Below, one piece after another: positions 7,901 through 31,900 of a stretch of 45,326 nucleotides of DNA. Source of the stretch: a virus (lineage: Duplodnaviria > Heunggongvirae > Uroviricota > Caudoviricetes); IMG/VR virus record IMGVR_UViG_2778261532_000009, positions 1 to 45,326 of that record. One strand, given 5' to 3'. The position numbers were made by a program. Within the stretch, counting starts at the first letter, position 1. Each line of letters opens with the position of its first letter.

Positions 7901-10900
7901 GGTGACCCGTTTTGTGTGGCTGCGCCAGTTCGAGCCTGGCTCGAACTCTTCGTCGGCCAACCGGCTGCTCGACCGGCTCGAATATCTGCAACGCATCGAT
8001 CTCCCCGAGGATCTGCTTGCCGGCGTTCCTGCCCATCGGGTGACTCGTCTGCGCAGGCAGGGTGAACGGTATTATGCCGACGGCATGCGCGATCTCCCGG
8101 AGGACAGGCGGCTTGCGATCTTGGCTGTTTGCGTCTCGGAATGGCAGGCGATGTTGGCCGACGCAGTGGTCGAAACCCACGACCGGATCGTCGGCCGTCT
8201 CTACCGTGCTTCGGAGCGTATTTGCCATGCAAAGGTCGCAGACGAAGCGGGGGTGGTGCGTGACACCCTGAAATCCTTCGCCGAGATCGGGGGCGCCCTG
8301 GTCGATGCACAGGATGATGGCCAGCCGCTGGGCGATGTCATCGCGAGTGGGTCAGGGTGGGACGGCTTAAAAACCCTTGTTGCAATGGCAACCAGGCTGA
8401 CCGCCACCATGGCCGACGATCCGCTCAATCATGTGCTCGACGGTTATCACCGCTTCCGCCGATACGCTCCACGCATGTTGCGCCTGCTCGATCTGCGAGC
8501 TGCGCCCGTTGCACTGCCGCTTCTGGAAGCGGTGACGGCCCTTCGTACCGGTTTGAACGATGCCGCGATGACCAGCTTCTTGCGGCCCAGCTCGAAATGG
8601 CATCGCCACCTTCGGGCCCAGAGGGCTGGCGACGCTCGCCTATGGGAGATCGCGGTGCTGTTCCATCTGCGCGATGCGTTCCGCTCCGGAGATGTCTGGC
8701 TTACTAGGTCCCGGCGCTATGGCGATCTGAAACACGCACTCGTTCCGGCACAATCCATCGCGGAAGGCGGTCGTCTCGCTGTGCCATTGCGGCCGGAGGA
8801 ATGGCTGGCAGACCGGCAAGCTCGCCTCGACATGCGGTTGCGCGAGCTTGGCCGTGCCGCTCGCGCAGGCACGATCCCGGGCGGGTCGATTGAAAACGGC
8901 GTTCTGCATATCGAGAAACTCGAAGCCGCCGCGCCGACAGGCGCCGAAGATCTGGTGCTCGATCTCTACAAGCAGATCCCGCCCACGCGCATCACCGATC
9001 TCCTGCTGGAGGTGGATGCGGCGACCGGCTTCACCGAAGCGTTCACCCATCTGCGCACAGGAGCACCCTGCGCTGACCGGATCGGGCTAATGAACGTTAT
9101 CTTGGCGGAAGGGATCAACCTCGGCTTGCGCAAAATGGCGGATGCGACAAACACCCACACCTTCTGGGAATTGATCCGCATTGGACGGTGGCATGTCGAG
9201 GGCGAAGCCTATGACCGGGCGCTGGCCATGGTGGTCGAGGCACAGGCAGCGTTACCCATGGCCCGGTTCTGGGGCATGGGCACGTCGGCTTCGAGCGACG
9301 GACAGTTCTTCGTCGCTACAGAGCAAGGTGAGGCCATGAACCTGGTCAACGCGAAATATGGCAATACCCCGGGCCTGAAAGCCTATAGCCACGTCTCCGA
9401 CCAATATGCGCCGTTCGCAACCCAGGTGATTCCTGCAACGGCAAGCGAAGCGCCTTACATCCTCGATGGCCTGCTGATGAACGATGCTGGACGCCATATC
9501 CGCGAGCAGTTCACCGACACGGGCGGCTTCACCGATCACGTCTTTGCCGCATGTGCCATTCTCGGCTACCGGTTCGCTCCGCGCATCCGCGACCTGCCAT
9601 CCAAACGGCTCTACGCGTTCAATCCGTCGGCCGCCCCGGCGCACCTGCGAGCGTTGATCGGCGGAAAGGTCAACCAAGCCATGATCGAGCGCAATTGGCC
9701 CGACATCCTGCGCATCGCCGCCACCATTGCTGCCGGGACCGTCGCGCCAAGCCAGATTCTGCGGAAACTCGCCTCCTATCCGCGGCAGAACGAGCTCGCG
9801 ACAGCCCTGCGGGAAGTCGGTCGCGTCGAGCGCACCCTGTTCATGATCGACTGGATTCTGGATGCCGAACTCCAACGGCGTGCCCAGATCGGGCTCAACA
9901 AAGGCGAAGCTCATCATGCGCTGAAGCGGGCAATCAGCTTCCACCGCCGCGGTGAAATCCGCGACCGTTCCGCCGAAGGCCAGCATTACCGCATCGCCGG
10001 CATGAATCTGCTCGCCGCCATCATCATCTTCTGGAACACCATGAAGCTCGGCGAGGTCGTTGCAAACCAGAAACGCGATGGAAAGCTGCTATCGCCCGAT
10101 CTCTTGGCCCATGTTTCGCCGCTCGGATGGGAACACATCAATCTCACCGGAGAATATCGCTGGCCAAAGCCTTAGCGTAGGATTCCGCCCCCTCCCGCAA
10201 ACGACCCCTATAATGGCAATGTGAATGTCTTCGTAGTTGACTAAAGCCACAACTCAATTATAACAATTAATTATAGCAATGGTGGCTATTTTATTTATCG
10301 CGAATCACATTTTTTCTCTTCAGTACCTGTGTGCTATACTCCTTCTTGATTGATTGGATGCGGAATACAAACCCGCTCTTTTGTGCAGCCTGGCTCCTTG
10401 CCAGGCTTTTTTTTATTTCATCATGGAAGCTGTTAACGCTTTGGACCTTGCTGAACTGATTGAGAGGACTTTGTCAACGTGCCCCAAAAATTCGCCAAAC
10501 TCAGACATCACTTTAGCAAAACCGCGCCGTGCTTCTTCCTCGGTGGCGTTCATCACGAAATGTTCAGCACTACGCATACTTTTGACAGGGAACGCAACGG
10601 ATATTGAGTCAATATCAGGCATCCTGTCGCTCAACTTTACAGTGACAATGACGGCTGGCGACTGAATATTAGTGCTTACAGACAGCACTACATATTTTCC
10701 GTCGATGTTGAAATCCTTTCTCATATGTCACCATAAATATCAATGAATTAGAGCAATCATTTACGCGTTAATGGCTAATCGCCATCTTCCAGCAGGCGCA
10801 CCATTGCCCCTGTTTCACTATCCAGGTTACGGATATAGTTCATGACAATATTTACGTTGGTCCAGCCACCAGCTTGCATGATCTCCGGTATTGAAACTCC

Positions 10901-28900: not shown

Positions 28901-31900
28901 ATTGATTGGTTTTGTGCTGAAGTGATCATTTCAAAGTTCCGTATTAGCTTGTGCTTCGGTCATTTTTCCTAAGTATGAAGGAGGAAGGACTACGCAATTT
29001 GTATCCAGTCCCTCACCTATGGCAGCCTGTAAAATTCTGGCTAAGGTGAGTCTCTTGTTGCGATACCTGGTGATGACATGCCTGATACCGCCGGTCGGCG
29101 TAACAAAGGCGATCAGCCAGTAGTGATATTTCCGTCGGAATGGCCACATAGTGCACCTTGTAGATTGCTCTAATAAAAAACGTGATGAGTGTACATCACG
29201 TTTTAAAAATATGGAATTATTAGAGCAATATTATTCTGATTCTCGCTCAAAAAATCAGCTGATAAGGGGAAGCCAATCCTCTGACACTTCGCGAGGTCGC
29301 GGTTTGCCGTGGAAAAAGATTATTCGGCAGTCTTTTGGTAATGCCCCATTCCCCCTGGAGTAACGCGCGCTCGCATATTTTGAACCAGGTTCCACAACAT
29401 CGGCCTTGTAACTTACAAACCATCCTGGATACAGATCCTGAAATGCTGGTGTATCATCGCCCATAACCTTTCGTAAGAACCCCTGGTCCCCCCAGCACTC
29501 AGTAGTGACACAACGAGAAATCCAACCTTCCGGATCTTGCCAGAATGAACTCCAGATATGCGCTTTAACACTATTTGGTATCCACAGGGCACCGCTGCCA
29601 CGATATTGTGGATGGTAAAAATCCCTAAGCATGGTGAAGCTGGTTGGTGGATGCTCTAGGATTGGGCGTATATCACCGGCAATAACCGTGTCCAAATCCA
29701 GATAGAACAGATCATCGGTTATATCCGGTCGGAACAACTCGATTTTCGCCCACCAGCCACGGCACTTTTGCCACTGGTTGATCAATGGGACAACTTTGAC
29801 GCCAGGTACATGTAAACGCTTCAGGTCTGTCAGGCAAATAATTTCATAGCCTTTTGGCAGTTGATTAACCAGCCACTGCACATCGGAAGCGTTATAGTCA
29901 CCACCAGAGCGAAAAACTAAAGCAATCTTCATGCTGCACCATCACCTTTCACTTTCACTTTCATCAATGTCAGGTTTCCGCAAAATACGGCACCAGTGTC
30001 GATATACTGCTGATTCCAGAATGTCTTCGGGCTTTTCACCGGAGTGTGACCAAAGATAAAACGATCTGCGCCCGAAATTTCGCCACCAATATCATCCATC
30101 GAATCACTGATACGCTCGCGCGCCCAGACAACGTTGAAAAGCGGCACCTCCTTACCGAATTGGTATTCATTATCCGGATAGTCGGCATGGGCTATAACGA
30201 TAGTTTCTTGCCCCGTGTTCAACTCAATGATATAGGGCAGACGCTTTACCAGCTCCACCAGCGCCCAGGCTAATATTTCCTGATCAGTGTCCAGCATGAA
30301 GAACCATTGTCCGCCATTCATTAGCCAGTTATTCACGTTGCCATCTGGACTTAACGCATCAATCATCAGCCGCTCATGGTTCCCCATCACTGCCCTGAAC
30401 CAGGGCATCTGCAATAGTTCCAGACATTCGACATTTTCAGTACCGCGATCGATAAGGTCGCCTACCGATATCAGTAAATCCTGCGCCGGGTCAAAATCCA
30501 CACGATGGAGTTCGGACATCAGTCTGGTGTAGCAACCATGCAGATCACCAACAACCCAGACATTCCTGTATTTGGTACCGTCGATACGGTGATAAATTGT
30601 GGGTGCCATCATGTATTCTTCAGCCATTCTTTAAGAGTCATCTGCGGAATACCTCCCATTTTCCCGCATGAAACAACGTCAATCTGTTCACGCGCAGACT
30701 GGAATAACAAAGGCAGGTGACTTAGATTTTTTGGCGTGCCGCCGGAGTGAACGCGTAGTTCTTGCGTAGCGTCAACGCCCACCAGAGCTACATGTTTGAA
30801 TCCGATATGGAAAGCCAGGTTCAGAGCACCATATGCACTATTGCCGCTGGCAATTTCATTCTCATCTTCGCAAAGGCCGAAATGTGCGGACCAGCGCCAC
30901 GCCCACCACTCGGGAGAATTCGTATTTTTTGGCTCCATGCCACGTTCAGCCACACGACGGAAGCACAGAACGCCGTCTCTGACTTCACGTTCTTTAACAT
31001 CGGGTAGTGCCATGCAATAACAAACACCACGGCGACGGCGGCCACGACCAACGCGCCGCATATTGTCTGGCGATGGATCAAGTGTGAAAAAATAAGAAGC
31101 GCGGTTCAGCCAGTCGATGGCCCCATTGACCGCTATAATCGGCACTCCGCGCGGCGCAACAAAGTTTGCGGCGCTTGGACCACTGCCGACGATAATAACG
31201 CGATCACTGCCTCTAAATTTATTCTTGGGAAACATTGAATTGCACTGCTCCTACTTGCATTCAAAATATGTAAATCTGCGTGTTTTTTGCGGGTATCCAG
31301 GAACTGCTGTTGCCATTTTGAAATAGACACCTGCGTTGGATTCCGTAGGGCTTGAGGGTGCGCGCCATGCCAATGAAGGCCGTTTTGCAGAGAACAGTCA
31401 TAGCCGACTAATACCACTACTTCAGCCCCTGATTCAGCAGCCAGACTGATAGCCTGCGCGCCGCTATTTACCCCTTCCGCCGGTCCACAATATCGCCTGT
31501 ACTCCAACGAAAATGATTTCGCCGCCGCCAGGTTGGCTGTCACTTTGCGGAATCTCCCTCCCGGTATGGTGGATCCGTATTGCTTCCACCATGACAAATC
31601 ACCGGCGTATAAGGCATAAATGTCATCGAACATCTGCCAGGAATTGTTAACCGCGATGATTGAACAGCCAGTTTTTTCTATAGCAGCACAGTCCTCACGA
31701 GTGAGTGACGGACCGCTACCGACACAAAAAACAGTCCTAGTCGCCCTGCGTGGTATGTTCATTCTCAGCTGCAGATTCAGCCTCCAGGCGAGCATTCATT
31801 TCAGCGATTACAGGGTCCACTACAGCATCTGTTTCCTGTTCATTACGCGGCATGATCGATGCCAGCGATTCATAATTAGCCTTGGATGACACGATTATTC

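Follow-up and report, generated by a model that had tools for sequence, protein, structure and literature searches.

Enterobacteria have Hfq-dependent small RNAs (sRNAs) of the RybB and OmrA/OmrB types, which carry a seed at their 5' terminus. Trans-encoded sRNAs also serve as antitoxins in type I toxin-antitoxin systems, such as TisB/IstR-1, ShoB/OhsC, and ZorO/OrzO. In phages P1 and P7, the c4 RNA is the known RNA repressor of the immI region. Here, we analyze IMG/VR virus record IMGVR_UViG_2778261532_000009 from positions 1 to 45,326 (we refer to this entire stretch of 45,326 nucleotides (nt) as the window). BLAST against phage records identifies the window as a plasmid prophage of the P1-like (Punavirus) type, whose orientation is the reverse complement of the P1 map. 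Our subject is a 10-nt word, GATTGATTGG, that recurs in the window. We propose, with a probability of roughly 0.7, that one copy of this word begins the gene for a phage-encoded trans-acting sRNA with a 5'-terminal seed, and that this sRNA probably represses operons that are mostly controlled by C1.

The candidate resembles the RybB/OmrA/OmrB-type sRNAs in several ways: it would be a short RNA with its own promoter, a single-stranded seed at or near nt 1, a terminator and U-tail after a U-rich stretch, and several mRNA targets at or near the Shine-Dalgarno (SD) sequence. Also, nt 10-18 of OmrA are identical to nine nucleotides of the phage seed. Unlike those sRNAs, it would be a phage RNA on a plasmid prophage, its identified targets are phage genes, and it has no similarity to them by covariance model. 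Like c4 (Rfam RF01695), it belongs to the P1 family and would control translation by pairing at ribosome-binding regions. However, c4 is processed from the transcript of its icd-ant target and acts on that operon only, while the candidate has its own putative promoter, adjoins immC/cre, and has dispersed targets.

As in the type I toxin-antitoxin pairs, there are small open reading frames (ORFs) with hydrophobic helices and a pairing site 5' of the SD sequence. One such target ORF is found in P1 and two are found in Cronobacter phage JK004 (28, 50, and 52 amino acids (aa)). Unlike in type I pairs, the sRNA gene lies ~10-20 kb away, and the candidate would also target genes that do not encode toxins (cra-cre, pmgS, and ref). 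Finally, the candidate resembles prophage sRNAs (DicF, IsrK, and the sRNAs of enterohemorrhagic Escherichia coli (EHEC)/lambdoid prophages) in being a base-pairing RNA that is carried by a phage and found widely in E. coli via a mobile element. Those sRNAs lie in integrated lambdoid or defective prophages and mostly target host genes, while the candidate lies on the P1 plasmid prophage and its regulon appears to be within the phage.

A candidate sRNA gene between c8 and ref

The putative transcription unit has these parts:

10312-10340, + strand: putative sigma-70 promoter, with a weak -35 (TTTTCT, 10312-10317), a 17-nt spacer, and a -10 (TATACT, 10335-10340)
10348-10414, + strand (P1 minus strand, nt ~1828-1894): candidate sRNA of ~67 nt, between c8 and ref
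10348-10357, + strand: seed GAUUGAUUGG, at the 5' end of the sRNA
10356-10379, + strand: hairpin 1 of the sRNA
10380-10386, + strand: U-rich linker of the sRNA
10387-10407, + strand: terminator stem-loop, called by terminator prediction
to 10414, + strand: U-tail, which overlaps the stop codon of c8 (10413-10415, - strand)

Transcription of the sRNA would be on the opposite strand from that of c8 and ref. The + strand reads gTGcTATACT-ccttctt-GATTGATTGG-atGCGGaatacaaacCCGCtcttttgtgc-AGCCTGGCtccttGCCAGGCT-TTTTTTT, or in other words, an extended -10, 7 nt, the word, a small hairpin, the U-rich linker UCUUUUGUG, an 8-bp GC-rich terminator, and a tail of 7-8 U. The extended -10 is the TGc at the end of the promoter's spacer (10332-10334), and the -35 is TTTTCA in most P1-type relatives. 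The predicted fold of 10348-10414 leaves nt 1-8 unpaired (z = -3.2). By sequence, this region has its own putative promoter (with a weak -35) and a Rho-independent terminator and contains no ORF, as expected for an independent transcription unit.

We fetched 80 P1-like loci from IMG/VR via C8 and aligned the c8-ref intergenic region, which gave 50 distinct sequences. The half with the ref promoter is variable; the sequence from TGcTATACT through the terminator is nearly invariant. TGnTATACT and its 7-nt distance to GATTGATTGG are the same in all 50 of these P1-type sequences.

The first nine bases of the seed, GATTGATTG, are invariant in every homolog that we found. These include the ~80 C8-anchored loci; 108 IMG/VR stretches from a scan for the architecture that left the seed free (80 were fetched, of which 18 were distinct); and P1-type and JK004-type matches in metagenomes, from a scan pattern that required the seed. 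Nucleotide 10 is A or U in a few P1-type contigs, and the cra leader shows no matching change. This nucleotide is the base of hairpin 1, and the change from G to A is compensated in one sequence (L190) and not in another (L252).

From an alignment of 13 sequences (A1), we built a covariance model. Of the pair cells in this alignment, 95% are paired, and double changes are seen at four pairs; 0-2 of 500 shuffles match this. One of the double changes, from G10-C to A-U at the base of hairpin 1, lies inside the P1 clade. In each genome, the model has a single strong match, which scores 98 bits for the window and for P1 and 64 bits for JK004. An accessible and conserved seed, a remainder that diverges, and compensatory changes in the structure are what we would expect for a trans-acting sRNA.

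Copies of the word and complementary sites

The word occurs five times in the window: on the + strand at 10348, 12047, 27005, and 28900, and on the - strand at 37860. A first-pass annotation of the window had located the four + strand copies at 10347, 12048, 27006, and 28903, which are the right sites but are off by 1-3 nt, and had missed the copy at 37860. In the complete P1 genome, we found these five copies and no further ones. (Window position 12241 corresponds to P1 nt 1, in loxP; 10227 corresponds to P1 2015; and 26899 corresponds to P1 84482.) The four same-strand copies read CCAATCAATC on the + strand of P1:

P1 186-195, + strand: word copy 11 nt before the cra ATG
P1 ~1885-1894, + strand: word copy between c8 and the ref promoters
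P1 82472-82481, + strand: word copy in pmgS codons 7-10
P1 ~84367-84376, + strand: word copy downstream of the C1-controlled PpmgT promoters, before an unannotated 28-aa ORF

On the - strand of the window, the three non-coding copies read CCAATCAATCA and are followed, after 0-2 nt, by GAGGTG (cra), AGGAG (the 28-aa ORF), or AAGGAG (the orphan copy at 10348). This reproduces the first-pass observation that three copies precede SD-like sequences. The orphan copy had been described as having a ribosome-binding site but no start codon, and there is indeed no start codon at a usable distance. From its sequence context, the orphan copy is best read as the gene for a trans-acting RNA that recognizes the other copies. 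Those copies, and one of the ORFs that they precede, are:

12047-12056, - strand: target 1, CCAAUCAAUC in the cra-cre leader, at -21 to -12 from the cra AUG (12035)
27005-27014, - strand: target 2, CCAAUCAAUC at -25 to -16 from the AUG (26989) of the 28-aa hydrophobic ORF
26903-26989, - strand: hydrophobic ORF of 28 aa (MNTAFKIIMAAIYFWLFSITFGGIVAHG), preceded by a good SD; the P1 records that we examined do not annotate it
28900-28909, - strand: target 3, CCAAUCAAUC at +21 to +30 of pmgS (AUG at 28929), codons 7-10
37860-37869, - strand: fifth copy, which lies within dbn; the dbn mRNA contains GAUUGAUUGG here, in the sense of the sRNA

Target 1 abuts the SD sequence AGAGGUG and lies just 3' of a long leader hairpin. 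It is invariant in the 80 P1-like loci, and its duplex with the seed has a predicted energy of -14.4 kcal/mol. In the minimum free energy fold of the cra leader, an upstream CACC pairs with the SD, and the loop that this creates contains the 10-mer. The leader hairpin itself (12057-12125, - strand; GCGCUACGUAAAAUCUG...CAGAUUUCGCGUAGCGC) is long and conserved, with a loop that varies among P1-like relatives, and has a counterpart in JK004.

The C1-controlled PpmgT promoter lies upstream of target 2, and a 5' hairpin (27017-27039) immediately precedes the target. In this window, its complementarity to the sRNA extends for 15 nt (-22.4 kcal/mol). The N-terminus of the 28-aa ORF is conserved as a 50-aa ORF in JK004. 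The 28-aa ORF has no family match in Pfam, NCBIfam, or PHROGs. It may be a small membrane peptide or a toxin-like peptide. More broadly, protein-family searches revealed nothing about the functions of the small ORFs, Cra, C8, PmgR, or PmgS.

Target 3 had been set aside as coding. It does lie within pmgS, but it does not seem to be merely coding: all 10 nucleotides are kept in the pmgS of JK004, including synonymous positions, while neighboring codons differ (MITSAQNQSIENV vs. MTATAQSQSITVT). The word is predicted to be unpaired in all three of the window's targets, and two of them are immediately 3' of a stable 5' hairpin.

The copy in dbn has the sense of the sRNA, so it is not a target. Because of this wrong sense, and because its orientation is not seen in JK004 (where all copies are on one strand), we suspect that it is probably due to chance.

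Besides the copy in the sRNA gene, all of the same-sense copies in both phages lie within -26 to +30 of a start codon. Just ~3-4% of strand-specific positions are within 30 nt of a start codon. Against this background, finding 3 of the 4 remaining P1 copies in initiation regions has P ~1e-4, and finding all 5 of the JK004 copies there has P ~1e-7. Complementary sites in the initiation regions of unlinked mRNAs, which are kept along with the seed, are expected for the targets of an sRNA.

The first-pass annotation had also suggested that the word might be a shared translational-control element or RNA-binding site. This fits the leaders of cra and of the 28-aa ORF, and judging from its conserved sequence, very probably the copy in pmgS as well. 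It does not fit the orphan copy, which is likely to be the gene for the regulator.

We also scanned both genomes with RNAduplex, using the first 16 nt of the sRNA as the query. This was uninformative, with many spurious matches, because nt 9-16 are GC-rich and would normally be inside hairpin 1. Another idea that we rejected is that the third site along the + strand, with its seed, hairpin, and T-run, could be a second + strand sRNA gene. It has no -10 at the right distance, the covariance model gives it 16.6 bits (E = 0.41), and the equivalent hairpins in JK004 are not followed by T-runs on that strand.

Comparison with Cronobacter phage JK004

JK004 has diverged from P1 (the Cre proteins are 79% identical), but an equivalent putative sRNA unit occupies the corresponding position. 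It consists of TGaTATACT, seven bases that differ from those of P1, GATTGATTGG, a hairpin whose sequence is unrelated, a linker that resembles the P1 linker, and a terminator. One U-A pair of the terminator is C-G in JK004, which is a compensatory change. Four copies of the word are orthologous between the two phages: the one in the sRNA gene and three target sites, whose flanks have diverged. The predicted targets in JK004 are:

Leader of the first gene after lox: orthologous to the P1 cra site, with different flanks
Leader of the homologous small hydrophobic ORF: orthologous to P1 target 2
pmgS codons 7-10: orthologous to P1 target 3
42392-42401 of the JK004 record: directly abuts the AUG of a ref-like gene
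Leader of a membrane ORF of 52 aa: a C1-operator-like sequence precedes the ORF

None of the JK004 copies is in the orientation of the dbn copy. A terminator hairpin and its T-run immediately precede the ref site, and there is no SD between the word and the AUG. P1 ref has GCCAT at the equivalent position, so the predicted regulon differs between the lineages.

Is the word's recurrence due to chance? The first-pass annotation put the expected number of copies at far less than one, and for a pre-specified word in the window, we obtained 0.17. However, this is not sufficient after correcting for the look-elsewhere effect: among windows simulated with Markov models, 20% (order 1), 38% (order 3), or 77% (order 5) had some 10-mer with at least 5 copies. 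Because the word was picked after looking, and because 20-77% of simulations match it, the count in the window is by itself compatible with chance. The other top-ranked 10-mers in the window are all C1-operator or Chi-containing words, which are known functional motifs. (The Chi-containing 10-mers (GCTGGTGG) rank with the window's most frequently repeated words, and their over-representation in JK004 is very strong, with up to 16 copies per 10-mer.)

JK004 provides the enrichment check in a related genome that the first-pass annotation had recommended. It has six copies of the word, all on one strand, where 0.36 were expected (Poisson P ~2e-6). Also, the motif persists at orthologous sites: the four P1/JK004 copies are identical at 10 of 10 positions, while their 40-nt flanks are just 57-82% identical. 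These comparisons indicate that the recurrence of the word is real and under selection.

Position 11 of the sRNA provides another line of evidence. In JK004, nt 11 of the sRNA is C, and all five targets have a G just 5' of the word, so that the 11-mer GCCAATCAATC is present six times. In P1, nt 11 is A, and the orthologous small-ORF target has a U there. In these sequences, the regulator and its targets match. Pairing between RNAs accounts for this, but a fixed protein-binding motif would not. Also, in 7 of 8 targets, there is an A immediately 3' of the site, opposite the 5' end of the sRNA. An A just 3' of the target site has been described for targets of RybB.

Other explanations for the word

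We considered whether the word (CCAAUCAAUCA) might instead be a cis-acting element in leaders, either a translational enhancer or a place where a protein binds (S1, an RNase, or a translational repressor of the phage, for example). The orphan copy would then be a decayed initiation region. Two to three copies do abut SD sequences, most of the targets in both phages have the conserved A after the word, and the word is unpaired in an A/C-rich stretch. Nevertheless, we think that this is improbable. First, the putative ribosome-binding site at the orphan copy, AAGGAGTATAGCA, is the complement of the extended -10 and the discriminator on the other strand. Its SD-like part is lost in JK004 (GCGAATGAGTATATCA), while the opposite-strand -10, the 7-nt spacing, and the downstream terminator are kept. 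Second, the functional copies do not share a fixed place relative to the SD and the start codon: the conserved pmgS copy is at +21 to +30, and the JK004 ref copy abuts the AUG and has no SD after it. Third, the extra G in all of the JK004 target copies matches nt 11 of the JK004 sRNA.

A similarity to OmrA raises the question of whether the sites are docking sites for this host sRNA (and OmrB), with the phage RNA acting as a mimic, a competitor, or a sponge. The 5' tail of OmrA contains AUUGAUUGG; omrA from E. coli MG1655 has AUUGAUUGGUG at nt 10-20. Nine of these nucleotides are identical to the phage seed, and 11 nt are complementary to the cra leader (CACCAAUCAAU). However, the OmrA-B family (RF00079) has no match at 10250-10500, even with E <= 10, so the locus is not a member of that family. 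What is conserved is GAUUGAUUGG plus a lineage-specific nt 11, not the context of OmrA, and this is a better fit to the phage RNA. Furthermore, OmrB is mismatched in this stretch, and the targets in JK004 have a G instead of the A that the longer pairing with OmrA requires. It seems quite doubtful that host sRNAs account for these sites, although some cross-talk is possible.

The location of the candidate sRNA gene, with its U-tail overlapping the c8 stop codon, suggests another alternative: a cis-antisense RNA or a terminator for the convergent c8 (and for read-through towards ref), with the other copies due to chance or to functionless inheritance. Read-through transcripts of c8 would be perfectly complementary to the RNA, and as explained above, the number of copies is not significant after the look-elsewhere correction. 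But the four orthologous 10-mers are intact despite 18-43% divergence of their flanks, and JK004 has two additional, lineage-specific copies, with all of its target copies in initiation regions and on one strand. This makes a purely local role very unlikely.

Last, although all of the JK004 copies have one DNA orientation and the first and third + strand sites are near mosaic junctions, an operator, recombination signal, or packaging signal that acts as DNA and is bound by a phage protein is highly implausible, as the positions of the copies are linked to start codons on the transcribed strand, one copy is inside a coding sequence, one is exactly at the predicted +1 of a promoter-terminator unit, and the word is neither a palindrome nor a pair of repeats.

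Proposed mechanism and role

The trans-acting sRNA is supported by sequence and by comparison, namely by the anatomy of the transcription unit, the invariance of the seed, the conservation of the structure, and the placement and conservation of the complementary sites. If this interpretation is correct, then P1-like phages carry an unannotated sRNA gene of ~67 nt (at ~10348-10414 on the + strand of the window), and the sRNA is made from its own promoter, with the G of the word as +1. Its single-stranded 5' seed, GAUUGAUUGG, would pair with CCAAUCAAUC where the translation of several phage mRNAs is initiated. The regulon in this window would comprise the cra-cre leader, the leader of the 28-aa ORF that heads the pmgT operon, and codons 7-10 of pmgS; in JK004, it would also include ref and a second small membrane ORF. 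Sites at -26 to -10 overlap the footprint of the 30S ribosomal subunit, and pairing near the SD would presumably block 30S binding and repress translation. At pmgS, mRNA decay or a disturbance of the coupling between pmgR and pmgS seems more likely. The U-rich linker, terminator, and U-tail make it probable that Hfq is involved.

Several observations weigh against this proposal. We infer the promoter, the position of +1, and the sRNA itself from the sequence. The -35 is weak (3-4 of 6 matches), and for this reason, a simple -35/-10 promoter scanner did not call a promoter. Just two clades (P1-type and JK004-type) are represented, so the covariation reflects few independent events. The site in pmgS is outside the classical window of the first five codons for blocking initiation, and the cra and pmgS sites of P1 pair over the 10-mer only (~-14 kcal/mol). 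No copy of the word was found in the half of the phage D6 genome that was examined. Also, in a transcriptome of P1vir in a delta-hfq host, cra, cre, and ref were under-induced at 20 minutes, not de-repressed. These data are indirect and at the level of mRNA, but they do not help the simple picture of an Hfq-dependent repressor.

As to the role of the sRNA, C1 operators or C1-operator-like sequences head the pmgR-pmgS and small-ORF/pmgT operons, as well as ref and gene_104 in JK004. The C1 operator Oref is ~70-85 bp upstream of the sRNA's +1 and serves the divergent ref promoter; the sRNA promoter has no C1 operator. Because the target operons have C1-type operators and the sRNA promoter does not, the likeliest role of the sRNA would be as a post-transcriptional second lock or timer. 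We speculate that a constitutive RNA that dampens leaky or early expression of phage genes is the most economical version of this role.

Most P1-type relatives have ATTGCTCTAATTGATTG as their Oref (P1 AF234172 1962-1978; ~10265-10281 in the window). Within this operator, on the strand that does not encode the sRNA, is ATTGATTG, which is the core of the seed; we regard this as a probable coincidence.

A bolder idea, which we view as unlikely, is that the sRNA is a master lock. It would be made constitutively in the lysogen; would shut off leaky translation from several operons, most of them under C1 control (the Cre operon, ref, pmgS, and small membrane-toxic peptides); and, because nine nucleotides of the seed are shared with OmrA, would reach into the host's OmrA/OmrB regulon. 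A phenotype in the establishment of lysogeny has historically been assigned to the c8 ORF, which is adjacent to the sRNA gene. A master-lock RNA could even be the real basis of this phenotype.

If the proposed sRNA exists, it would be a second conserved sRNA and would add an unrecognized layer to the lysis-lysogeny circuitry of P1. It would also explain the strong conservation of the target leaders. P1 has been studied intensively and Cre/lox is a universal tool, and the sRNA is predicted to have sites in the cra-cre leader, in pmgS, and in front of small membrane peptides.

Distribution and family searches

The element is present in 617 of 5,426 complete E. coli genomes (~11%), almost always on plasmids. 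Because of this prevalence, any activity of the sRNA towards the host would be widespread. Many of the P1-like phage-plasmids that contain the element carry resistance transposons, as the window does.

RefSeq has no non-coding RNA annotated at the site of the sRNA, including in those E. coli genomes. No Rfam family reaches its gathering score at the sRNA locus (the best weak match is to SorX, with 22.6 bits vs. a threshold of 46.6). The C4 family (RF01695) does not match at any copy of the word; its only match is at 15235-15322 on the - strand, so the candidate is not a member of that family. Across the accessible annotation, Rfam 15, and the literature (with the P1 genome paper not covered), we found no regulatory RNA of P1 other than c4, and literature searches with the 10-mer as a string returned unrelated primers only.

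We did not find a third lineage with a different seed: the seed-free scan of IMG/VR and the metagenome scan yielded only the P1 and JK004 types. A scan of species-representative genomes yielded only two matches from Escherichia and about 10 chance matches.

Other features of the window

To the left of 10228, the window has a transposon mosaic (1-10227) in place of P1's ref:

275-1135, - strand: beta-lactamase
1880-5044, + strand: Tn3-family transposase
5304-5373: IS10 RNA-OUT
5381-6238, - strand: rve-type transposase
6541-7164, - strand: resolvase
7290-10175, + strand: second Tn3-family transposase

Homology to P1 restarts at 10228, which is ~85 bp upstream of the -35 of the candidate sRNA, so the sRNA unit is intact despite the mosaic.

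A second difference from P1 is between phd/doc and pap, where a restriction-modification cassette replaces pmgT:

20857-26823, + strand: type IC (EcoR124-type) hsdM/S/R cassette

On the + strand, hsdR is followed by a terminator-like hairpin; the same DNA, read on the - strand, forms the 5' hairpin of the small-ORF leader (27017-27039). The P1 record notes that this junction shares homology with what lies downstream of the hsd loci of EcoDXXI and R124. We considered whether the first and third + strand sites might be relics of recombination junctions. In other plasmids, the breaks in homology near the third site result from an IS1 insertion and from the hsdR terminator region, and the word is not involved in them, so we rejected this idea.

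The window also has an extra antirepressor module between c1 and pacB (13844-15524, - strand), which P1 lacks at that position:

13844-14962, - strand: ANT/KilAC antirepressor
14959-15318, - strand: Ash-family ORF
15235-15322, - strand: C4 antisense RNA (Rfam match, RF01695)
15349-15426, - strand: isrK-like RNA (Rfam match)

This module looks like a second immI-like, RNA-controlled immunity unit that adjoins immC.

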